Below, piece after piece: positions 2,851 through 17,391 of a stretch of 19,056 bases of DNA. Both the position numbers and the translations under genes were made by a program. Under the pieces are notes generated by a model. That model was not told where the DNA came from. It ran no database searches and saw nothing but the letters and a program-made list of their open reading frames with translations. Source of the DNA: a virus. Its lineage: Duplodnaviria; Heunggongvirae; Uroviricota; Caudoviricetes. The stretch lies in the IMG/VR virus record IMGVR_UViG_2695420589_000003; one strand, given 5' to 3'. Numbering within the stretch: position 1 is the first letter of the stretch; every line of letters begins with the position of its first letter.

Positions 2851-3285
2851 NNNNNNNNNNNNNNNNNNNNNNNNNNNNNNNNNNNNNNNNNNNNNNNNNN
2901 NNNNNNNNNNNNNNNNNNNNNNNNNNNNNNNNNNNNNNNNNNNNNNNNNNNNNNNNNNNNNNNNNNNNNNNNNNNNNNNNNNNNNNNNNNNNNNNNNNNN
3001 NNNNNNNNNNNNNNNNNNNNNNNNNNNNNNNNNNNNNNNNNNNNNNNNNNNNNNNNNNNNNNNNNNNNNNNNNNNNNNNNNNNNNNNNNNNNNNNNNNNN
3101 NNNNNNNNNNNNNNNNNNNNNNNNNNNNNNNNNNNNNNNNNNNNNNNNNNNNNNNNNNNNNNNNNNNNNNNNNNNNNNNNNNNNNNNNNNNNNNNNNNNN
3201 NNNNNNNNNNNNNNNNNNNNNNNNNNNNNNNNNNNNNNNNNNNNNNNNNNNNNNNNNNNNNNNNNNNNNNNNNNNNNNNNNNNNN

Positions 3286-3465
3286 CAGCTCTCCGGCGTA
3301 ATCCATGACAAACATCACTATCTGATAGCGGTAAACAAACGATGGGGTTTCTCCGGTCGTTTCAATGTTGCCGCTCTCCACGAAAATGGTGAATTTTTCC
3401 GGGTTGGCATGACACCACCGGCATGAACGGGTCATGGCTTCACGCAGGGAATCAGTTTTCAGCAT
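3286..3465 (-). CDS. R: Tail completion protein gpR, N-terminal 60 codons visible; 3' end masked
   Basis: ATG at 3465; MLKTDSLREAMTRS... resembles recalled P2 gpR N-terminus; follows the lysis genes as in P2. Confidence 0.65.
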
Positions 3466-3742
3466 GGTTGTTGTCCTCGTTGTTCAGTCGTTGCAGCCTG
3501 CGCTGTTCCAGTAATTCAATGGCCCGCTTATCGGCGTTACAGGTTTCCAGTGCGTCCATGAGGCTGTCGCTCCATATCCCGATGTTTCCCCATGATGGCG
3601 TCACCGGAAACGGCGGGGGAAGTACGGGGGCGGTCAGCCCTTCCGGGATGAAACGGAACGACGGCGGCGGCGCGGACGCGTTCTGCGTGCTGGTGCAACC
3701 GCTCAGTAAAGCGAGCGTCAGGAACAGCGCGGGCACATGCAT
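3452..3742 (-). CDS. lysC: Outer-membrane spanin (o-spanin, LysC/Rz1-like lipoprotein)
   Basis: Track ORF 3452..3772; lipobox LLSGC after a hydrophobic stretch and a Pro-rich mature region (PPPSFRFIPEGLTAPVLPPPFP); starts inside lysB in another frame and runs past its stop. Start is either GTG 3772 or ATG 3742. Confidence 0.7.
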   Translation of the reverse strand: MHVPALFLTLALLSGCTSTQNASAPPPSFRFIPEGLTAPVLPPPFPVTPSWGNIGIWSDSLMDALETCNADKRAIELLEQRRLQRLNNEDNNHAEN

Positions 3743-4010
3743 CTGTCGTGATATCGTTGCGTAGCTGTTCACGTCGGATTTCCCCTTCCTGTTGTCGGTT
3801 CTGGCGCGCTGTCATGACGTCACGCAGTACACCGGATGCGGTGCTGATGATGGTGCCGGCCTCTTTCAGGGTCCGGCTGTAATCGTCCAGTTGCGCCTGT
3901 GTATAACGGTTGTGTCCGTCTTCCTGCCCCAGTCTGAATGTCTGCCAGAGTGTTATGGTCAGCAGCGTGAGGACGGTCAGTGCCATCATCAGGATGTAAC
4001 GCACTTTCAT
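3537..4010 (-). CDS. lysB: Inner-membrane spanin (i-spanin, LysB/Rz-like)
   Basis: 157-aa ORF with one N-terminal TM segment (ILMMALTVLTLLTITLW) and a charged periplasmic part; ATG 4010 overlaps the endolysin stop as ATGA. Confidence 0.7.
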   Translation of the reverse strand: MKVRYILMMALTVLTLLTITLWQTFRLGQEDGHNRYTQAQLDDYSRTLKEAGTIISTASGVLRDVMTARQNRQQEGEIRREQLRNDITTDACARAVPDARFTERLHQHAERVRAAAVVPFHPGRADRPRTSPAVSGDAIMGKHRDMERQPHGRTGNL

Positions 4011-4544
4011 GACTGGCCTCCGGTGTCACGTAAGCACCATGCACGAAAATCAGTACGACGGTTAACCAGTCCCTGTGAGCGTTCGCCGCCGCTGTTCACG
4101 AAGTCAGTCAGTCTGTTGCACATGTCAGGCCAGTTGTGCGCCTGTGCATGTTTCCAGATAGTGGTGCGGTGGTAGTTACGGTTCTTATCCCTGAACCACA
4201 TAAGATTTCTGCATCCAAGATTAAAGGCGGCATCTGTCATTGCCTCAAACGCGGACTGTGGCATGGCGTTGCCGCTGAAGTTCTGATTTATGCAGTTTTC
4301 TGCATGTTGCATATCATTAACCCAGCGCCCGGCGACTTCCGTTTCGGTGTACAGACGATTTTCCACATGCCCGGTCGAGCCGCACCCCACGGTCATTACC
4401 CCGGCAATATCCCGGTAAGGCGTTGCGCGACAGTCCTCCCATGTGGCAATGCGGATTTGCGCTTCCGGGCTGGTCCGGAGTTTGTGAGGGGCAATGGAGA
4501 ACCCCAGCGCCACAATGGCGGCTACGGCGTAACGTTTAACGGGC
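4007..4544 (-). CDS. K: SAR-type endolysin (GH24 phage lysozyme, P1 Lyz / phage 21 R-like); start hidden in mask 4545-4562
   Basis: Visible sequence has a weakly hydrophobic Ala/Gly-rich N-terminal segment (YAVAAIVALGFSIA), an E-x8-D-x5-T catalytic arrangement (WEDCRATPYRDIAGVMT) and blocks ENCINQNFSGNAMPQSAFEAMTDAAFNLGC and FVNSGGERSQGLVNRR that match recalled P1 Lyz. Confidence 0.85.
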
Positions 4545-4562
4545 NNNNNNNNNNNNNNNNNN

Positions 4563-5312: not shown

Positions 5313-5811
5313 NNNNNNNNNNNNNNNNNNNNNNNNNNNNNNNNNNNNNNNNNNNNNNNNNNNNNNNNNNNNNNNNNNNNNNNNNNNNNNNNNNNNNNNN
5401 NNNNNNNNNNNNNNNNNNNNNNNNNNNNNNNNNNNNNNNNNNNNNNNNNNNNNNNNNNNNNNNNNNNNNNNNNNNNNNNNNNNNNNNNNNNNNNNNNNNN
5501 NNNNNNNNNNNNNNNNNNNNNNNNNNNNNNNNNNNNNNNNNNNNNNNNNNNNNNNNNNNNNNNNNNNNNNNNNNNNNNNNNNNNNNNNNNNNNNNNNNNN
5601 NNNNNNNNNNNNNNNNNNNNNNNNNNNNNNNNNNNNNNNNNNNNNNNNNNNNNNNNNNNNNNNNNNNNNNNNNNNNNNNNNNNNNNNNNNNNNNNNNNNN
5701 NNNNNNNNNNNNNNNNNNNNNNNNNNNNNNNNNNNNNNNNNNNNNNNNNNNNNNNNNNNNNNNNNNNNNNNNNNNNNGCGTCTTCTGGTGCGGCTGCGGA
5801 ATCGGCTTTTT

Positions 5812-6504
5812 TCAGGGCGCGGGAAAGGGNNNNNNNNNNNNNNNNNNNNNNNNNNNNGTTGCAATCTCGCGTTTCACACCTGCGTTCTGGTTCAGATGCA
5901 TCGCTTCGCGCAGCAGCTTCAGTGATGAGGCCATGCTGTCCGCATCGCTCAGGCCACGGCGGGCAAAGGCGCACGCCTTGCATAATTTGGCGCGCACTTC
6001 GTCCGGCATATCCTGGTTGGCGACAATTTCCCAAAGTGTGTCCAGTGGTTCGATAAAGACGGACAAATCCGCGTCGGCATCCGTCCCGGCCTGCGTCAGT
6101 ACCGGATTGCAGATTTCTTCGGTCAGCACTGTGGCAGCAGTACGGCCAAAGTTATCCGGCATGATGAGGTTGTGACGGACCGCATACGCACCAATACGCA
6201 GCGCAAGCGGAAGATCGCCGCAGTCAATCGCCCACACCATCAGCGTGGCAATCACTTCGTCCTGTTGCCCGCCGTCAGCCTCCAGCGTTCCCTCAATCCA
6301 GCCGGAAAAGTCCGGCAACAACGCTTTTTTGATGTCGGCTTTCGCGCTTCTGGCCTGTACGCCCTTAAGCCGGGCCTGTGCCAGACGCAGACGATACAGC
6401 ACCTCTTCATGCGCGGTACGCGCGGCGTGGTCCACACCTTCATTCGCCCGGCCTGCGCGCTGTGCCATCACGTTCTGCCAGTGTTGCTGTGCAGGAGTAA
6501 TCAT
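5812..6504 (-). CDS. M: Terminase small (endonuclease) subunit gpM; 3' end uncertain because it crosses mask 5830-5857
   Basis: ATG 6504 with GGAGAG RBS; the block MPDEVRAKL and overall profile resemble recalled P2 gpM; synteny N-M-L. Confidence 0.8.
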   Translation of the reverse strand: MITPAQQHWQNVMAQRAGRANEGVDHAARTAHEEVLYRLRLAQARLKGVQARSAKADIKKALLPDFSGWIEGTLEADGGQQDEVIATLMVWAIDCGDLPLALRIGAYAVRHNLIMPDNFGRTAATVLTEEICNPVLTQAGTDADADLSVFIEPLDTLWEIVANQDMPDEVRAKLCKACAFARRGLSDADSMASSLKLLREAMHLNQNAGVKREIAXXXXXXXXXXPFPAP

Positions 6505-8462: not shown

Positions 8463-8858
8463 AGTTTTTGCCCCTCTGACTGGTTCTTCAGTCATGATGG
8501 CAAAGCGTAACAGGCTGATACAAAGGGCTTTTGTTGTAAGAAAACGGCCAGAACAGGGGGNNNNNNNNNNNNNNNNNNNNNNNNNNNNNNNNNNNNNNNN
8601 NNNNNNNNNNNNNNNNNNNNNNNNNNNNNNNNNNNNNNNNNNNNNNNNNNNNNNNNNNNNNNNNNNNNNNNNNNNNNNNNNNNNNNNNNNNNNNNNNNNN
8701 NNNNNNNNNNNNNNNNNNNNNNNNNNNNNNNNNNNNNNNNNNNNNNNNNNNNNNNNNNNNNNNNNNNNNNNNNNNNNNNNNNNNNNNNNNNNNNNNNNNN
8801 NNNNNNNNNNNNNNNNNNNNNNNNNNNNNNNNNNNNNNNNNNNNNNNNNNNNNNNNNN

Positions 8859-10399
8859 CAGGTGGTGACTTTAAGGAAATAGACCTGCTGACCCGGCAGC
8901 TTAAAAAACTGCATGATGGCCAGCCGGATGCGACGGCCACAGGAAAGAAAGGCCGGGCGAAAAAACTCAAAAATCATTTCACGCCGGAACAGATTGCCGC
9001 ACTGCGGGAAAAAATCATCAGCAGGCTGGAGTGGCATCAGCGGGGCTGGTTTGACTCCCTGACGCTTTGCAGGGAAGCCGGGATACGTAACAGGATGATC
9101 CTGAAATCCCGACAGATTGGGGCGACCTGGTATTTTGCACAGGAAGCACTGCTGATGGCGCTGCGTGACGATGTGGCACAACCTTACCAGCGTAACCAGA
9201 TTTTTTTGTCTGCGTCGCGTCGTCAGGCGTTCCAGTTTAAAAGCATTATTCAGAAGGCCGCGGCTGAAGTCGATGTGGAGCTGAAAGGGGGCGATAAAAT
9301 CATCCTCTCCAACGGCGCAGAGATGCATTTTCTCGGCACTTCTGCTGCGACGGCGCAATCTTACACGGGCAATTTTTATTTTGATGAATTTTTCTGGGTC
9401 AGTCGCTTTGCTGAACTGCGCAAGGTGGCTGGCGCTATGGCAACCCTCAGCGGACTGCGGCGCACCTGCTTCTCCACGCCATCCACCGAAACGCACGAGG
9501 CATACGCCTACTGGAACGGCGACCGCTGGAACGAGAAAAAGGCCGCGCATAAACGCCAGCGTTTTTCTGTGGACTGGAAAACGCTGCATAACGGGCTTAT
9601 CTGCCCTGACCGGACGTGGCGGCAAATTGTCACGCTGGAAGATGTGGTTAATCACGGCTGGAAACACACCGATATTGATGAAATTCGTGATGAAAACACC
9701 GAAGACGAGTTCCGCAATCTCTATATGTGTGAGTTTGTCCGCGAAGGGGAATCGGCATTTAACCTGAATATCCTGATTGGCTGCGGTGTTGACGGATACG
9801 ACGACTGGAAAGACTGGAAACCCTTTGCCCCCCGCCCGATGGGGAATCGTCCGGTATGGATTGGGTATGACGCAAACGGCAGCAGTGGTAACGGCGACAG
9901 CGGCGCTGTGTCCGTGGTGGTTCCTCCGGCTGTTCCTGGTGGTCGTTTCAGAACGGTGGAGACGCGACGCGTTCAGGGGCTGGAATTTGAAGAGCAGGCC
10001 AGAGTTATTGAAGAGTTCACGTATCGCTACAACGTGGAACACATCGGCATTGATGCGACGGGCGGGCACGGGGATGCCGTCTATCAGATAGTGAAACGGT
10101 TTTTTCCCGCCGCCATCCCTTACACCTTCACGCTGTCATCAAAACGGTCGCTGGTACTGAAAATGCTGCAAATAATGCGTGCCGGGCGGTGGGAATACGA
10201 TCGCGCCGAACGCGAGCTGGTTGCGGCCTTTAACGCCGTGCGTAAGGTGAAAACACCGGGCGGTTTTATCACTTACGAAACGGACCGCGCGAGGGGGATC
10301 AGCCACGGCGACCTTGCGTGGGCAACCATGCTTGCTGTCATTAACGAACCGATTGGCGGCGAAGGAGAAAACGAGCGTTTCACGGTTATGGAGTTCTGA
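8859..10399 (+). CDS. P: Terminase large (ATPase) subunit gpP; N-terminal part masked (8561-8858)
   Basis: Long plus-strand frame ending at TGA 10397-10399 that overlaps the Q start (TGATG); Walker-B-like FYFDEFFW present; position divergent from O and upstream of Q matches P2. Confidence 0.85.
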
Positions 10400-11445
10400 T
10401 GAGCAGAAAAAATAAAAAAGTGCGCATGAGTTCACGCATTGATCTCGCTGATGCGCTCAGGAAAGAATCGTCGCTCAGTGCATTCACATTTGATGGTCCT
10501 TACCGCCTGACCGGGCATGACCTGCTGGACAATATGTACTGTGCTGATAACGGGCGGTGGTATGAAACCCCGGTGGACTGGTACGGTCTGGCAAGAGCTG
10601 CCCGGCAAACGTCCTGGCATCAGTCTGCGCTTTACTTTAAGCGCAATGTATTGCTCGGCTGCTATATTCCGCACCCGCTGCTTTCCCGGCAGGATTTCTC
10701 GGCGCTGGCGCTGGACTGGTTTGTGTTCGGTAACGCATTCCTTGAGCTTCGGAGCAATATGCTCGGCGAACCGCTTAAATTACGGCACGCCCTGGCGAAA
10801 TACATGCGACGCGGAAGCGATCTTGAATCATGGTGGTATGTGCAGGATGGCAAGGATGCGTTTCAGTTTCGTCCTGGCAAAGTGTGCCACCTGATGAATC
10901 CGGATATTAACCAGGAAATCTACGGCATGCCGGAATATCTTGGCGCATTACTCTCGGCCAGCCTTTCTCATTCGGCGGACATGTTCAGAAAACTGTACTA
11001 CGACAACGGATCCCACGCCGGGTGCATCATCTACATCGGTGCAGCGCAGGTAAACCGCGAAAGCATGGACTCCCTGAAAGAAACGCTACAGGGGGCACGT
11101 GGTGGTGGTGCGTTTAAAAACGTGCTCATTCATGCGCCCAACGGGGGCAAAGAGGGGGTGCAAATTTTGCCGTTCCAGCAGATCACCGCAAAGGATGAGT
11201 TCATGAATGTTAAGGCGGCATCCCGTGATGATGTGCTGGCTGCGCACCGCGTTCCGCCGCAACTGATGGGGGCGATGCCGGGCGAAAAAAGTGCGTTTGG
11301 TGATGTGGAGAAGGCCGCGCGGGTTTACGCAATTAACGAGCTGATGCCCGTCATGGAGGCCATGAAGCACATCAATGACTGGCTTGGCGAAGAGGTGATC
11401 CGCTTTAACCCTTACGCACTGTTAGACACCCAGCCCACATCCTGA
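10399..11445 (+). CDS. Q: Portal protein gpQ
   Basis: 348-aa ORF (P2 gpQ about 344 aa) starting MSRKNKKVRMSSR; GGAG RBS; last late gene before the presumed cos region, as in P2. Confidence 0.9.
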   Translation: MSRKNKKVRMSSRIDLADALRKESSLSAFTFDGPYRLTGHDLLDNMYCADNGRWYETPVDWYGLARAARQTSWHQSALYFKRNVLLGCYIPHPLLSRQDFSALALDWFVFGNAFLELRSNMLGEPLKLRHALAKYMRRGSDLESWWYVQDGKDAFQFRPGKVCHLMNPDINQEIYGMPEYLGALLSASLSHSADMFRKLYYDNGSHAGCIIYIGAAQVNRESMDSLKETLQGARGGGAFKNVLIHAPNGGKEGVQILPFQQITAKDEFMNVKAASRDDVLAAHRVPPQLMGAMPGEKSAFGDVEKAARVYAINELMPVMEAMKHINDWLGEEVIRFNPYALLDTQPTS

Positions 11446-11496: not shown

Positions 11497-11782
11497 ACTC
11501 TCCAGCTCCTGTATCAGTCAGATAATTTCACGACGCTTTCCTGCTGATTGCCATCATCGACAGTCAGACTCTTACGCAATCCCACCTCGTTGACTGCATA
11601 TTCTCGCCGTCTCAGTGCGATTTTGACGGCCTTACCTTTCACCCCATCAAATCAAAAGCCCTCACGTCTTTTTCACGCTCAGCGTGAGAAATACAGCCAT
11701 TCTGTTGTATCTCTGCGACATCGTTCAGGGAATGCTATTTACCCCCTGAAACGCGGGCTGTTCCCCCGTCACCTGCGCGCAG

Positions 11783-11826
11783 AAAAAACGCGTTTTTTTG
11801 TGCATGCACGGATCCTTGACGGATCC
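11783..11826. repeat. Cluster of palindromes: AAAAAACGCGTTTTTT (11783-11798), GTGCATGCAC (11800-11809), GGATCC-N5-GGATCC (11810-11826)
   Basis: Read directly from the sequence. Confidence 0.6.
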
Positions 11827-11870
11827 AGCCGCCACGCGGGCCGGAAGGGCAAAAAGTCGTTCAAAAAAAT

Positions 11871-11896
11871 TGTGCAAATTTGTGCACTATTGTGCA
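11871..11896. repeat. Three TGTGCA hexamers at exactly 10-bp spacing (11871, 11881, 11891); a fourth copy at 11799
   Basis: Read directly; helical phasing suggests a protein-binding array. Confidence 0.6.
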
Positions 11897-11936
11897 TTTA
11901 TAAAATCAACTAAAAAACACCTAGTGTGACTTACCT

Positions 11937-12122
11937 CTACCACTCGATCGGCACGTAGTCATTAAGTTCCGGAGACCAATTGCACTTTTCACATCTGTGT
12001 TTTCCATTCTGGCAGATACATAAACGATAACGGCCACAATGCGGGCACCCATTTTCACCATTATCATAATCACCGAGCGACCATTCCTGCATAAGCAGCT
12101 CTTCTTCATCATCATTTAGCAT
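11937..12122 (-). CDS. Small Cys-rich (zinc-ribbon-like) protein with an acidic N-terminus; island gene 5
   Basis: 61-aa ORF with ATG 12122, AGGGGGA RBS and a Cys cluster (C-x2-C-x5-C-x-C-x6-C-x2-C); last gene of the minus-strand island. Confidence 0.55.
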   Translation of the reverse strand: MLNDDEEELLMQEWSLGDYDNGENGCPHCGRYRLCICQNGKHRCEKCNWSPELNDYVPIEW

Positions 12123-12136
12123 TAATCCCCCTTGAG

Positions 12137-12376
12137 CTATTTACTCTTCTCGGCCCTCAAAATCATACGAGAACCATCATCCAGCTCCCAATTAATTTCA
12201 CCGCCTTCTGCCATGACTAGATGCCAAACGAGTTGAGCGGCCTCGTTGGTTACATCGCGACCGCGATCATTTCCTACGCGGCGTTTTGTTCCGTCTCCTA
12301 AGTCACGCATTTTTGCCAATACGATGGTTTTTGATAGCGGTGAAAAACCAAGCTGTAGTCGTGCTGAATTACTCAC
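12137..12376 (-). CDS. Hypothetical protein (79 aa from GTG, or 57 aa from the internal ATG); island gene 4
   Basis: ORF whose GTG start overlaps the stop of the upstream 174-aa ORF (GTGA); no recognisable motif. Confidence 0.4.
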   Translation of the reverse strand: MSNSARLQLGFSPLSKTIVLAKMRDLGDGTKRRVGNDRGRDVTNEAAQLVWHLVMAEGGEINWELDDGSRMILRAEKSK

Positions 12377-12897
12377 TGGCTGCCCCCTTTGTACTGTGTT
12401 AACTCTTCCTGCTCCTGCATCATGCGATTGACCTGAACGCGTGTGCGTCGAACGGCAAAATTAAATTGAAACATGAGCCGGAACATTTCTGATGCTTCCG
12501 TGTGAGCATCACGGATAGGTGACAGGCGGTACAGTTCTGCCTCCGTAGCTTGTTGAATCAATGACAGATCAAATTGAAGTGCGGGTCTGGTACATTTTGC
12601 ACATCTGGCAGCAAGCTCCGGTATTAGTCTCTTAACGAAGGTGTTTTGCACCGCTTTGTTGATTTGTGTCTGCATCCAAATCGCAAATTTCAGCGAACGC
12701 ATAAGTTTGATAGCCTCGGGCAGCGGCAGATAGATCATGCTGGTAGATTTGGGTGGTTGGTGAACCATCTTCACGGATACGCGATTTCGCAGCGTTCGGA
12801 AAATCGTGTTCCCAACAACAGCTTCTACGGATACAGGACAGGGAGCCAGACCAGCCCGCAGTGCTTCTTTCATTAGCATGTATTCGTATTTTTTCAT
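12373..12897 (-). CDS. Hypothetical basic protein (174 aa); island gene 3
   Basis: ATG 12897 with GAGGA RBS 6 nt upstream; no recognisable domain. Confidence 0.55.
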   Translation of the reverse strand: MKKYEYMLMKEALRAGLAPCPVSVEAVVGNTIFRTLRNRVSVKMVHQPPKSTSMIYLPLPEAIKLMRSLKFAIWMQTQINKAVQNTFVKRLIPELAARCAKCTRPALQFDLSLIQQATEAELYRLSPIRDAHTEASEMFRLMFQFNFAVRRTRVQVNRMMQEQEELTQYKGGSQ

Positions 12898-12957: not shown

Positions 12958-13121
12958 TCATTCAGGAAATAATGCCCGGATATTCCCTGCTATCTGACTG
13001 GTTATCTGTGCGGTTGGTACTGGCTGTGGCACGGGGCGTTCTGTCCTGGTTTGTGTCACCGATAACGCCTCATCGTCAGCCCATGCAGCCAGTCGGTAAG
13101 CCTCTGCTGGATTCATTTTCA
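12958..13121 (-). CDS. C-terminal 53 codons of an ORF starting in mask 13122-13387; candidate ParR-like adaptor by position only
   Basis: Open minus-strand frame ending at stop 12958, immediately downstream of the ParM-like gene, which is where parR sits in parMRC loci. No motif verified. Confidence 0.3.
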
Positions 13122-13387
13122 NNNNNNNNNNNNNNNNNNNNNNNNNNNNNNNNNNNNNNNNNNNNNNNNNNNNNNNNNNNNNNNNNNNNNNNNNNNNNNN
13201 NNNNNNNNNNNNNNNNNNNNNNNNNNNNNNNNNNNNNNNNNNNNNNNNNNNNNNNNNNNNNNNNNNNNNNNNNNNNNNNNNNNNNNNNNNNNNNNNNNNN
13301 NNNNNNNNNNNNNNNNNNNNNNNNNNNNNNNNNNNNNNNNNNNNNNNNNNNNNNNNNNNNNNNNNNNNNNNNNNNNNNNNNNNNNNN

Positions 13388-14299
13388 CACCCCGTCCGCG
13401 ATGAAAGTCGCATTAACTCCGCAGGCTTCGCGGATAGCGGGTGCCACAATCTCCGCCCCTCCACCGACAACCATCACCCGCCCGTAACCCGAAAAACCCG
13501 CCAGCGCGCGGATCACGCGTTGTTTCAGTGTTTCTTCCTTTTCACGAATAACCGCCATCAGGCTGGCGTAATGCGCGTCATTGTGGATGTGCTGGCGCAG
13601 CCAGGCTTCATCATGGCGATGTTCGATAATGGTATTGGCGATGTGGTGACTGGTGCGCATACCGTTAGTGGCCATCACCGACAGTACGGCATCGGCCATC
13701 AGAGAAACGCCTACGTGTGGATCGCAAAACACCTGGCTGATACCTGCCAGTTGCCCCTGAACCTTTGCCACATCCAGCGTGGTTCCGCCCAAATCCACAA
13801 TCAGCAGGGATTCAAACGGACTCATGTCAGCCAGTGCCTTAAAGCCAGCCGGAATGGATTCAGGCATAACCCGCACGTTACGGATAGTGAATGCTTCGCC
13901 GTTCTGGTACTCCACCGGGCGCATAACGTTCGCTTTTTTGCGGTTGATGTTGGCCATGTCCGGCTGTGCGTTTGTGTCGAAATACTCGCTCAGTGGCAGG
14001 GTGACAACCACATCCACCTCCTGTGGCGTGATGCCTGATTTGACCAGCGCGTGATGAATGGCAATGACATTTACATCGCTGTACTGGTATTGCGTGTCGG
14101 TTGTCTGGACAAAGCGATCGCTGACCGGATCAAAACCATAGCGCACGCCATCAAGCATGTAGTTCGCGGGCTGCATGCCACCGAACGGCGCAGACCATTC
14201 CGACTTGAAGCTGTTCGGGCTGATGGCGTTGCGGCGTTCGCCGTTCTCAGTCCATGCCAGCTTGATGTTGGTGGAGCCGTCGTCGATACAAATTTTCAT
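13388..14299 (-). CDS. ParM/StbA-like actin-fold ATPase (304 codons visible; C-terminus masked)
   Basis: N-terminus MKICIDDGSTNIKLAW closely matches recalled R1 ParM; all three ASKHA nucleotide-binding motifs present: DDGSTNIK (14261-14284), LIVDLGGTTLD (about 13778-13795), VMVVGGGAE (13451-13477); AAGGA RBS before ATG 14299. Confidence 0.85.
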
Positions 14300-14330: not shown

Positions 14331-14442
14331 TTTACGGGATTCTGAAATCCCGTTTTTGCCTGTTTTGTGCGCGCTTCATATATCGCTGCGCGTTTTTTGC
14401 TCATTTACGGGATTCGTGAGTCCCGTTTCTGTCTGTTTTTTG
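14331..14442. repeat. Two copies, 73 bp apart, of a ~36-bp element TTTACGGGATTC-(loop)-TCCCGTTT-T-rich; each forms a hairpin followed by a T-run on the plus strand
   Basis: Copy 1 at 14331-14366 (hairpin 14335-14352) in the A/ParM spacer; copy 2 at 14404-14442 inside the last codons of A; loop differences are compensatory. Confidence 0.6.
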
Positions 14443-16785
14443 TTTCCACTGGTCAGGCCACCCCGCAGCAGGTCTGCTTTGCGGCGGGCGCGTTCAGTGG
14501 TTTCACTGATTCTCTGTGCGTGCTCTGCGTCGCGGATGGCGCGCAGCATGTCAGAAAGCACGGTAACGGGTGTTTTCATGGTGTTCTGGTCCTGCTGAAG
14601 TGTGGATGCCAGGCGTGCGGCGGCTTCAGGGTCTGATGCCCCCAGCTGTGTCAGATAGCTGGCGACCGGGTTATGGCGGATCTCCGTGCTGCTTACGCCA
14701 TGATTACGGCTCAGGCGCTGCCAGAGCTGCGTGATTCGGCTGTCCGGGCGGGTATCCGGTTTGCGTACAATTTCAAATCCCTGCGGTGCAATGATGCTGC
14801 CGTCAACGTACAGACTGCCGCCCCGTAACAGGTGCTGCATCTGTTGTTCACCGATATGCAGGCCGAGAGATTCAGCAGACTCCCGCCATTCTTTAGCGAG
14901 TAATTCGTGGTTATCAGGCAAAGGCCGCTGCTGTTTGCGGCTCTGTGTCCAGCTCTGCATTTCATCACTGCTGTTTTTTGCCTGTTTGTCACGAAGCGAA
15001 CGCATCAGCGCCCGGCGTTCGTGCCGTTTCAGTGAGCGCATCCATTCATCCACATCAACGCCGTCAGGGAGCTGCGGCCACGGTGCTGGCCGTTCTTCCG
15101 GCTGTTCTGTCCCGTTGTTGTCCGTTTCCTGTACACGGGGACAGTTATTGCCACGAGTCCAAGGGGCGGCAGGGCCGCCCTGAAGGTCAAAACCATTTTC
15201 GCGGGCGCTGTCTTCCGCTTCCGGTTTGCGTCTTACCAGCTTCCAGTTATCCGGATGCGTGCACACACGGGAGGATTCCCCGATGAGTGGTGACCAGATC
15301 CCGTAAATCTGTACGCTCTGTTCGCCGTAATCGTTCAGCTCATCGGCGAGGTCGTAGGCGGTGCGAATCAGGTAGTCTTTGCGTGGAACAAGTACGCCGC
15401 CCTGTTTCTCTATGTAGGTGGCAAAACATCCGGCATCAGCGGCGGCAAGAACCGCATCCATTGCGTCATCCTTCAGCCGTTGCGGGCCTTCCGGGTTGCG
15501 TGCCATCTGGCTGGCAAGGCGGCGCAGTTCACGCCATACCTGGCGGGAGGGGATGCCAAAGAACTGGAACTGGCGGACCCGGTGAAGGCGCGCCCAGCCG
15601 ATGGCGCGTTCCACGCTCTCGGCCATTGATTTTCCGGTTTCGTGGTCAACGCGTGGCTTGCCCGTTTTCGGGTCGATGCCATCCACGGCGCGGCTGTCCA
15701 GGTTTTTCCCGATGTAGGTGGCGATGTAGCTGGTTGGCGTGCCTTTTGAGCCGTCTACATACTCCGCCTTAAAGCGCGGAGTTATGTCATCGCCCAGCTC
15801 GTGACGATCTTCCTGAATGGCAATATCGCGGGTGTGGGACACAATGGTGTCGATTTCTTCCGGATGAGCAAAGACCATCATATGCCAGTGCACGGTGCCG
15901 TCATGGTGAGGCTCCGCCGTGCGGATGCCATACCAGCGCAGGCCGTCGCGGTTCAGTTTTTTGCGGACCGTCGCAAAAAACGTGTTAACCAGGTAATCGC
16001 TGGAGTCGCGCATTGTGGCCCCGTTCCATTTGGGATTCGGATGACCGTTCTCCGTTGTGGCGTGGTATTTTGACGGGCAGGTGACAGTCAGAAACACCGC
16101 TTTGTCGCCACGGGCTTCGGCCAGAAGTTCCAGCCCCTTCATGGTGGCCATCATTTCTGCCTTACGGTGAACCGGGTTACTTACTCCCGCGTAATACACC
16201 GTCTCGAGATCAATCGTGAACCCGTCTTCATTTTCCAGCATGAAACTTTTCAGGAAATCGCGTGTTTTCTCGCGCTGTGCGCGAAACTCGCTTAACGCGT
16301 CCTGGCTCAGATAGGGCGATGTTTTTCTGGAAACCAGACAGGCGGCGCGAAGTTGTTCTTCTCTCCACTCGCAACGTAACAGCCACAGTTTGCGTTTCCA
16401 CCATTCCGCACAGGTCAGGCGAAGGATTGCGCCCGGCAGCAGTTCTGTGTCCGGTTCGTGCCTCCGGTCTTTGTCTGTTGTCAGTGCGTCATAATGCGGA
16501 GGCATGGCGTGTAAGTGTAACGCCATGCGGGCCAGCATCTGATACGCCTTCAGCGTTACATCCATGGTCAGCTCGCCATCAGTCGCGCCAAAACCATCGC
16601 AGAGTTTTTCGAAGGTGCTGCTGAACATCGCCGCCGTCATGGTGGCCAGCGTCTGTATCTGGTGTTTGTTGAGTTGCGGCAGGTAAAGCAAATCGTCCAG
16701 GCGTTCACGTCCGGCAAGGGAGCGATAACCCGGTGTCAGCCAGTGTCCGTCAGTGCGATCCAGACGTTCGAATATTTTGCGCAGG
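14376..16785 (-). CDS. A: Rolling-circle replication initiator gpA (HUH endonuclease); 5' end in mask 16786-17312
   Basis: Contains EPHHDGTVHWHMMVF (HUH motif) and YIATYIGKNLD (paired catalytic Tyr), matching recalled P2 gpA; about 803 codons visible. Confidence 0.9.
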
Positions 16786-17391
16786 NNNNNNNNNNNNNNN
16801 NNNNNNNNNNNNNNNNNNNNNNNNNNNNNNNNNNNNNNNNNNNNNNNNNNNNNNNNNNNNNNNNNNNNNNNNNNNNNNNNNNNNNNNNNNNNNNNNNNNN
16901 NNNNNNNNNNNNNNNNNNNNNNNNNNNNNNNNNNNNNNNNNNNNNNNNNNNNNNNNNNNNNNNNNNNNNNNNNNNNNNNNNNNNNNNNNNNNNNNNNNNN
17001 NNNNNNNNNNNNNNNNNNNNNNNNNNNNNNNNNNNNNNNNNNNNNNNNNNNNNNNNNNNNNNNNNNNNNNNNNNNNNNNNNNNNNNNNNNNNNNNNNNNN
17101 NNNNNNNNNNNNNNNNNNNNNNNNNNNNNNNNNNNNNNNNNNNNNNNNNNNNNNNNNNNNNNNNNNNNNNNNNNNNNNNNNNNNNNNNNNNNNNNNNNNN
17201 NNNNNNNNNNNNNNNNNNNNNNNNNNNNNNNNNNNNNNNNNNNNNNNNNNNNNNNNNNNNNNNNNNNNNNNNNNNNNNNNNNNNNNNNNNNNNNNNNNNN
17301 NNNNNNNNNNNNCGGGGATCCCCGTTCCTTCACGCCCCACTGCGTGGCGCGGTTGTTGCCAGTCCCTGATGTACTCTGCCGTCATAGTGAT

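Follow-up and report, generated by a model that had tools for sequence, protein, structure and literature searches.

ZR61, a small predicted zinc-ribbon protein carried as a one-gene cassette at the cos edge of the gpA-gpQ hotspot in a P88-like prophage

The subject of this report is a 61-residue protein, here called ZR61, encoded at positions 11937-12122 of a 19,056-nucleotide (nt) stretch of DNA from a virus of the Caudoviricetes (IMG/VR record IMGVR_UViG_2695420589_000003). The whole of that stretch is referred to as the window. The original prediction, made from the letters of the DNA, described a cysteine-rich protein with an acidic N-terminus and six cysteines suggestive of a zinc ribbon. 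The translation of ZR61 is MLNDDEEELLMQEWSLGDYDNGENGCPHCGRYRLCICQNGKHRCEKCNWSPELNDYVPIEW, and the predicted spacing, C-x2-C-x5-C-x-C-x6-C-x2-C, is exact, with the cysteines at residues 26, 29, 35, 37, 44 and 47. The isoelectric point (pI) of the whole protein is 4.4, with a net charge of about -9.5 over residues 1-23, about +3.9 over the core (24-50) and about -3 over the tail (51-61). The N-terminus is indeed acidic, and it is the acidity that is conserved while the sequence varies, since the net charge of the 14-residue stretch that precedes W14 falls between -2 and -6 in almost all 31 members of the close family. The gene and its immediate features are the following.

11937-12122, minus strand: coding sequence of ZR61, a predicted C4 zinc-ribbon protein (open reading frame (ORF) list, PHROG match, alignments, purifying selection and AlphaFold2 model)
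12123-12136, minus strand: intercistronic spacer of 14 nt with the ribosome-binding site of ZR61 (read from the sequence)
11862-11887, minus strand: terminator-like hairpin, GTGCACAAATTTGCAC, followed by the T-run AATTTTTTTG (consensus scan)
11743-12152, minus strand: mobile ZR61/cos-proximal block of 410 bp (blastn of the window against the related phage loci L018 and L021)

A Shine-Dalgarno sequence, AAGGGGGA, lies 3 nt 5' of the ZR61 ATG. The junction with the preceding gene, which codes for a DUF7446 protein, reads TAG-CTCAAGGGGGATTA-ATG on the minus strand, with the G-run at 12127-12131. Because the spacer after the DUF7446 stop measures only 14 nt and holds the ribosome-binding site, ZR61 is read as sharing an operon with the DUF7446 gene and closing it. 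The terminator-like hairpin lies 50 nt past the ZR61 stop, and the same hairpin is found 3' of the gene in the Salmonella-type phage L078. A consensus scan found no convincing sigma-70 promoter upstream of ZR61, in the window or in the Salmonella-type context. The promoter and terminator calls are consensus matches only and no proof of function. A 64-residue ORF in another frame over ZR61 (11921-12115, minus strand) was set aside as a shadow ORF, as its apparent conservation elsewhere tracks that of ZR61. An Rfam scan of the window found no RNA family.

The hairpin overlaps a set of TTGTGCA repeats that belong to the cos-proximal backbone. Three copies lie at 11870-11896 on the plus strand with an exact spacing of 10 nt and a fourth lies at 11798, all between the ZR61 stop and the presumed cos. 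The repeats are conserved in P88 and occur in a variant form in the Salmonella-type phages L078 and L018. They could be an array bound by terminase or by another protein.

ZR61 has a family of its own. It matches the profile phrog_24897 over its full length (E=2.6e-46, 156.6 bits, residues 1-60 on profile positions 1-60 of 60). A word-index search returned 36 homologues, whose identity ranges from 95% (Salmonella) to about 60% (metagenomes). Searched exhaustively with a profile, a set of 1.84 billion representatives yielded 201 clusters (defined at 50% identity) at E<=1e-3, 46 of them at E<=1e-10. All of these relatives are small, at 50-170 residues. When seven loci were compared, the proportion of synonymous differences (pS) was 0.5-1.3, which is saturated, against 0.05-0.36 for nonsynonymous differences (pN), and the ratio of nonsynonymous to synonymous rates (dN/dS) between ZR61 and the 90%-identical copy in L005 is 0.058. 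Judged by these comparisons, ZR61 is a genuine and strongly conserved phage gene.

The exact protein occurs on 643 contigs and has been deposited as an uncharacterised or hypothetical protein from Shigella sonnei and Escherichia coli. Near-identical variants are found in Salmonella enterica (on at least 1000 contigs) and in Klebsiella pneumoniae. The hosts that could be identified for loci of the family are Enterobacterales, Xanthomonadales, Pseudomonas, Neisseriales and Methylophaga, and a tblastn search of PLSDB found no plasmid with a homologue. On this showing, the family is phage-restricted, widespread and uncharacterised, lives mainly in prophages of the Gamma- and Betaproteobacteria and has a distant relative in Lactococcus phages.

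The cysteines that define the fold are fewer than the six first noticed. Among 147 representatives of the wider family, C26 is kept in 146 and C29, C44 and C47 in all 147, while C35 is present in 30 and C37 in 82. Since only the first four are (nearly) invariant, the protein is taken to be a four-cysteine ribbon in which C35 and C37 are strand residues specific to subgroups. A six-cysteine or two-metal site was rejected on the same counts; position 42 varies as well (H in 66, R in 35, T in 10). Thus the zinc-ribbon part of the original prediction is upheld by the two CxxC knuckles found across the family, by the modelled hairpin and by weak matches that are ribbons only, and the six-cysteine site is not. 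Residues R31, R33, E45 and K46 are kept in at least 90% of the 147 representatives, and Y19, W49 and Y56 are strongly conserved across the wider family. In the close family the invariant residues are W14, L16, G17, Y19, C26, C29, R31, R33, C35, N39, G40, C44, E45, K46, C47, W49 and E52.

The layout of the protein is an acidic helix at about residues 4-13, a W14-x-L-G-D-Y19 clasp, a first knuckle (C26-P-H-C29-G), a beta-hairpin (34-44) with its turn at N39-G40-K41, a second knuckle (C44-E-K-C47), and then the conserved W49, P51, E52 and Y56. AlphaFold2, run on the family alignment, gave a mean predicted local distance difference test (pLDDT) of 92.5 and a predicted template modelling score (pTM) of 0.74. 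The model has a helix at 4-13, strands at 34-36 and 42-44 between the knuckles, and bridges at 49-50 and 55-56. Together, the alignment and the model argue that ZR61 is a classical C4 zinc ribbon, presumably occupied by one zinc ion, with an acidic N-terminal helix and a short acidic tail.

Every weak sequence or fold match of the family is to a zinc ribbon, that of TFIIS among them. A PDB profile search gave only the ribbons of L37ae/eL43, RpoM/TFS4, TFIIB and S27a, all below threshold (E>=0.08), and Foldseek gave eL43 and TFIIB, also below threshold (E>=0.2). In a member-wise Pfam scan of the 147 representatives, Zn_Ribbon_TF appeared below threshold in 55 (best E=2e-5) and L37ae in 16, alongside the ribbons of IS91 and IS1595 transposases, Rrn7 and the TNB domain of Cas12f. 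The only significant structural neighbour is an uncharacterised 84-residue protein of the Lactococcus phage CHPC971 (E=3.9e-4, TM score 0.67), which is a true distant homologue. Named beforehand as an outcome that would count against the ribbon was a confident assignment to a known family with no relation to zinc, and the profile and structure searches gave none. No catalytic motif is present in ZR61. Among the rare long relatives (P0060, P0081 and P0113 are examples), one has an N-terminal SLOG/YAcAr (DprA-like) domain, several have coiled coils, and two have an N-terminus that resembles ribosome-modulation factor (RMF) below threshold (E=0.05). These fusion partners were uninformative as a clue to function, as no partner recurs.

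The phage that carries ZR61 is P88-like (Xuanwuvirus, Peduoviridae), and not P2 proper, the phage to which the original prediction had referred; a ParM/ParR locus lies between its replication gene and cos. The genes run in the order gpA, ParM, ParR, p174, DUF7446, ZR61, cos region, portal, and are placed as follows.

9095-10399, plus strand: terminase
10399-11445, plus strand: portal, followed by the cos region
12137-12376, minus strand: DUF7446 gene, 79 residues (PF24233, phrog_1578), context rather than a functional partner
12373-12897, minus strand: p174, a 174-residue orphan, whose stop overlaps the DUF7446 start by 4 nt
about 12958-13270, minus strand: ParR-like gene, masked
13076-14299, minus strand: ParM, an actin-like segregation ATPase, partly masked by N (StbA_N, E=4.9e-82)
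14376-17333, minus strand: replication endonuclease (gpA)

Homology to P88 resumes, by blastn, at 11898, which is 39 nt past the ZR61 stop, so ZR61 is the last gene of the variable segment, as had been claimed. P88 and the Citrobacter phage phiSM have other genes at this position. The guanine-plus-cytosine (GC) content of ZR61 is about 43%, compared to about 55% for the backbone. The locus is the cos edge of the gpA-gpQ hotspot, a cos-proximal site described in P2-family phages (Rousset et al. 2022, PMC9122126). The P2 cos sequence is absent from the window at up to 3 mismatches, and cos is therefore placed by homology and position only.

Runs of N interrupt several genes of the window, ParM/ParR, terminase and the replication gene included. 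They lie at 2013-2051, 2209-2779, 2851-3285, 4545-4562, 5313-5777, 5830-5857, 8561-8858, 13122-13387 and 16786-17312. Because the ORFs read through these runs, their lengths, among them those of the "407-aa ParM" and of the "985-aa" replication protein, are artefactual. ParM/ParR is found between the replication gene and cos in P88 and in phiSM as well, which places a plasmid-type partition locus inside an apparently integrating P2-family prophage.

The surroundings of ZR61 were compared across 50 viral loci, 9 genome loci and several metagenome contigs, which dereplicated to 43 contexts. ORFs within 3.5 kb on either side were clustered by BLAST, at the protein level only. Apart from the P2-family portal, terminase and replication genes, which recur in 7 context groups, no ORF family was seen repeatedly around ZR61. 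No neighbouring gene co-varies with ZR61 across the 43 contexts, and PHROG scans assign unrelated functions to its immediate neighbours. In P2-family phages the gene lies 34 to about 1,200 nt from the portal gene and is in most carriers the gene nearest to it; in L030 a ribbon-helix-helix (RHH) gene stands in between. The upstream cargo in the window is ParM/ParR, p174 and DUF7446. In E. coli FDAARGOS_943 it is a ClpX-type zinc-finger protein, a 75-residue protein and DUF7446; in L005, L025 and L036 a DNA methyltransferase and DUF7415; in L030 and L069 ParA; in L028 HicAB; and in L018 a 452-residue unknown protein. In the Salmonella phages L078-L080, ZR61 is the sole gene between a backbone 136-residue gene and cos.

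Outside the P2 family, ZR61 is found in a NinG/NinX region, just 5' of the gene for the small terminase subunit in a phage whose portal is of the P22 type, at the head of an early operon past a divergent DUF3987 primase/helicase gene, after a ParB-like gene, and overlapping an HNH endonuclease gene. Since no neighbour co-varies with it across the 43 contexts and it is the sole cargo in Salmonella P2-like phages, ZR61 is, by its neighbourhoods, an autonomous one-gene accessory cassette and not a subunit of a system formed with its neighbours.

Partition genes turn up more than once in these surroundings. In the high-GC P2-like phage L030 (4288-5488), ZR61 lies inside a par operon, flanked by a ParA gene and a ribbon-helix-helix (ParG-like) ORF. 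Also, both L030 and L069 have ParA plus an RHH protein at the position equivalent to that of ParM/ParR in the window.

The cassette is mobile. The 410-bp block contains the ribosome-binding site, ZR61 and about 190 bp towards cos. Compared with Salmonella-type P2-like phages, the window is 88% identical over this block and 72% over the portal gene, which indicates a recent exchange of the cassette. The shared homology begins at 12152, so the ribosome-binding site moves together with the gene. In Erwinia psidii (L036/L064, 4690-5217), 34 nt separate ZR61 from the portal gene's end, and a segment homologous to window positions 11896-11752 lies upstream of it, which puts the gene on the portal side of that segment. 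As this is the other side from the one in the window, the cassette inserts at more than one cos-proximal position. The idea that cos proximity makes ZR61 the first gene to enter the cell was dropped, because the gene in L036 is on the opposite side of the cos-homologous segment.

The original prediction proposed that the protein regulates or inhibits a host or defence protein, and such a role is plausible given its size, charge and location. The best explanation of the present data, with a probability of about 0.4, is that ZR61 is an autonomous single-zinc ribbon cassette whose product binds or inhibits, in stoichiometric fashion, a conserved target of the host or of a defence system. In this mechanism, ZR61 would share a transcript, probably an early one, with the replication, par and cargo genes and form its final cistron, and the protein would fold around what is presumably a single zinc ion. 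It would act stoichiometrically rather than by catalysis, clamping a conserved macromolecule through a putative face of near-invariant basic and aromatic residues (R31, R33, K46, W49 and Y56). The acidic helix may provide charge complementarity or mimicry. The target would most likely be a conserved host or defence protein, which would make ZR61 a candidate host-takeover or counter-defence factor. A protein target is ranked as the most likely because ZR61 is small and acidic, occupies accessory or early positions in unrelated phages, and has no associated nucleic-acid element or partner gene.

A bolder form of this reading goes further and is doubtful. It holds that the family is a self-sufficient one-gene counter-defence or host-takeover factor, spreading as a cassette of about 0.4 kb among unrelated phages, into their early regions and next to cos. 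The protein would dock on a conserved bacterial target, for instance RNA polymerase or a common defence effector, by means of its TFIIB/TFIIS-like ribbon and acidic helix, and it would represent a new class of zinc-ribbon inhibitor.

Several points weigh against a binder or inhibitor of a host or defence protein. No experimental or homology link leads from ZR61 to any target, and the protein has no match in PADLOC, NCBIfam or among characterised anti-defence proteins. The gpA-gpQ hotspot is best known for prophage-expressed defence genes, not anti-defence genes (PMC9122126), and anti-defence genes are rare in P2-like prophages (PMC13586616). The timing of expression has to be inferred, because the promoter and terminator calls are consensus matches. 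The gene is dispensable, since only 1 of 5,426 complete E. coli genomes carries it. Frameshifted or truncated copies (P0034, P0035 and P0036) have been deposited from S. sonnei and E. coli; they match ZR61 up to residue 26-30 or so and then run out of frame, and are either decaying copies or sequencing errors. Finally, the basic face of the ribbon would suit the binding of nucleic acid equally well.

Four other explanations were considered. Behind a protein target, the ranking puts a nucleic-acid-binding regulator as the main rival and an exclusion factor as possible, with a three-gene system essentially excluded. The main rival, itself rather unlikely, is that the basic ribbon (R31, R33, K41, R43 and K46) binds DNA or RNA and modulates transcription, translation or some DNA transaction near cos. 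Analogies come from the ribbons of L37ae/eL43, primase and Mu Com, the ribbon core has a net charge of +3.9, the closest weak matches are ribbons associated with rRNA or RNA polymerase, and genes for DNA transactions are frequent neighbours (ParA, ParB-like, methyltransferase, HNH, the small terminase subunit and cos). However, the protein as a whole is strongly acidic (pI 4.4), and as the last cistron it has no downstream target gene of the kind seen in Mu com/mom. Also, no DNA or RNA element was identified as conserved in all contexts, where neighbours were compared at the protein level only; among P2-like phages, the cos-side DNA of about 190 bp does accompany the gene. P88 and most relatives lack ZR61, which also means that it is not needed for packaging or replication.

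Somewhat less probable is a prophage-expressed, single-gene exclusion or defence factor that would poison a component of competing phages, by analogy with tin and old of P2. The location fits, as the cos-proximal gpA-gpQ hotspot is where defence genes accumulate (PMC9122126), and in Salmonella L078-L080, where ZR61 is the only cargo, the 188-nt upstream spacer could hold a promoter of its own. Against this, PADLOC returns no match, no convincing sigma-70 promoter lies upstream in either context, and the gene is also present in the early regions of quite different phages, where one would sooner expect it to serve the cycle of the phage itself.

The role of the neighbouring genes was considered as well. 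In a three-gene system of p174, DUF7446 and ZR61, the ribbon protein would be a sensor, adaptor or antitoxin. The genes are tightly packed, with a 4-nt overlap and a 14-nt gap, and the identical island occurs in three IMG/VR prophages. In a fourth, otherwise identical prophage (L016, about 3142-4388), an IS3-family insertion of about 1.25 kb with OrfA/OrfB transposase frames breaks p174 and leaves DUF7446 and ZR61 intact. FDAARGOS_943 has DUF7446 and ZR61 with other genes in place of p174. For p174 itself there are only 8 homologues (S. sonnei, E. coli and metagenomes) and no match in Pfam, PHROG, NCBIfam or PADLOC; one homologue, 70% identical, lies in another P88-like hotspot that lacks both DUF7446 and ZR61, beside a single-stranded DNA-binding protein (SSB), a ClpX-type zinc-finger protein and Ead/Ea22. 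More than 230 E. coli genomes and phage-plasmids have DUF7446 but no ZR61, and ZR61 is found without DUF7446 in almost all other contexts and without either gene in more than 40. By this distribution the three-gene system is essentially excluded.

DUF7446, on which no paper was found in the literature, is common in E. coli lambdoid prophages and in phage-plasmids of about 48 kb and about 90 kb, adjoining DUF2737, Eae/Ead-Ea22 or ASCH genes. From this distribution it follows that the P88 hotspot is stocked with small early-region genes that circulate among lambdoid phages.

That ZR61 is a spurious or decaying ORF without function, as the frameshifted deposits and an identical ORF left unannotated in NZ_CP065615.1 might suggest, is already refuted at the level of evolutionary constraint, given a dN/dS of about 0.06 with saturated synonymous sites, core residues kept almost throughout about 200 clusters, a confident fold prediction and a good ribosome-binding site.

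That unannotated ORF is of practical importance. The Prokaryotic Genome Annotation Pipeline (PGAP)/RefSeq record places no annotation on the 100%-identical ORF at NZ_CP065615.1 21555-21740 (L003 9038-9223) and does annotate the adjoining DUF7446 gene. Surveys of hotspot content will miss ZR61 as a result, and such small hotspot genes are under-called. ZR61 is also a clean example of P2-family cos-proximal cargo that travels as independently mobile single genes and not as systems. Should the family prove to bind or inhibit a conserved component of the host or of a defence system, the anti-defence and host-takeover toolbox would gain a compact, metal-stabilised module of about 7 kDa, and this would explain the strong constraint on so small a gene in Shigella, Salmonella, Klebsiella and many environmental prophages.

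Among known families, PHROG 24897, which includes "hypothetical protein" entries such as A0A376P7E3_ECOLX, is ZR61's own family, with no differences; the family is unnamed, lacks a function assignment and is not covered by any Pfam or NCBIfam model. Searches of PADLOC-DB 2.0 at E<=1 gave no match for ZR61, DUF7446, p174 or a 109-residue overlapping ORF. The late activators Ogr/Delta of P2 and P4 (PF04606) had been excluded from the spacing of the cysteines, and rightly so, as Ogr has C-x2-C-x22-C-x4-C against C-x2-C-x14-C-x2-C in ZR61 and there is no Pfam match at E<=1. Membership of the Com, Lar, Ral and zf-dskA_traR families was rejected likewise, as ZR61 matches none of them in Pfam at E<=1 and the cysteine spacing differs. 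Lar (PF14354) does appear below threshold in 6 of the 147 representatives, all distant relatives (best E=8.8e-4), which is less often than the generic ribbon families do. An activator of the Mu Com type was rejected for lack of a Pfam match and of a downstream target gene, as ZR61 is followed by the hairpin and the cos region. The literature yielded a single small anti-defence protein called a "zinc ribbon", Enki, a very small ribbon-like phage protein that is a counter-defence factor (bioRxiv 10.1101/2024.06.14.598830). It is a functional precedent only. Homology was rejected, as the Enki sequence contains just one CxxC and its hhalign comparison with the ZR61 family reaches a probability of 5%.

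With the P2 genes tin and old and the other gpA-gpQ cargo, ZR61 shares a niche between the replication gene and cos/portal, variability among similar prophages and a GC content below that of the backbone. It differs from tin and old in having no similarity to either and in occurring outside P2-family phages as well. A further difference is the E. psidii copy, which is found on the portal side of the cos-homologous segment. In structure, it resembles the N-terminal ribbon of TFIIB (PF08271), the C-terminal ribbon of TFIIS/RPB9/TFS and L37ae/eL43, all of which have two CxxC knuckles around a beta-hairpin in the same order of elements. In size and make-up, its counterparts are Ogr/Delta, Mu Com, Lar, lambda Ral and the TraR/DksA-like lambda Orf73, which are four-cysteine phage proteins of about 60-75 residues that bind a host or phage macromolecule and are non-catalytic. 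At present, ZR61 is a small zinc-ribbon protein of a familiar type, uncharacterised and located in a known hotspot, and by analogy it most plausibly works as these small zinc-binding phage regulators and modulators do.

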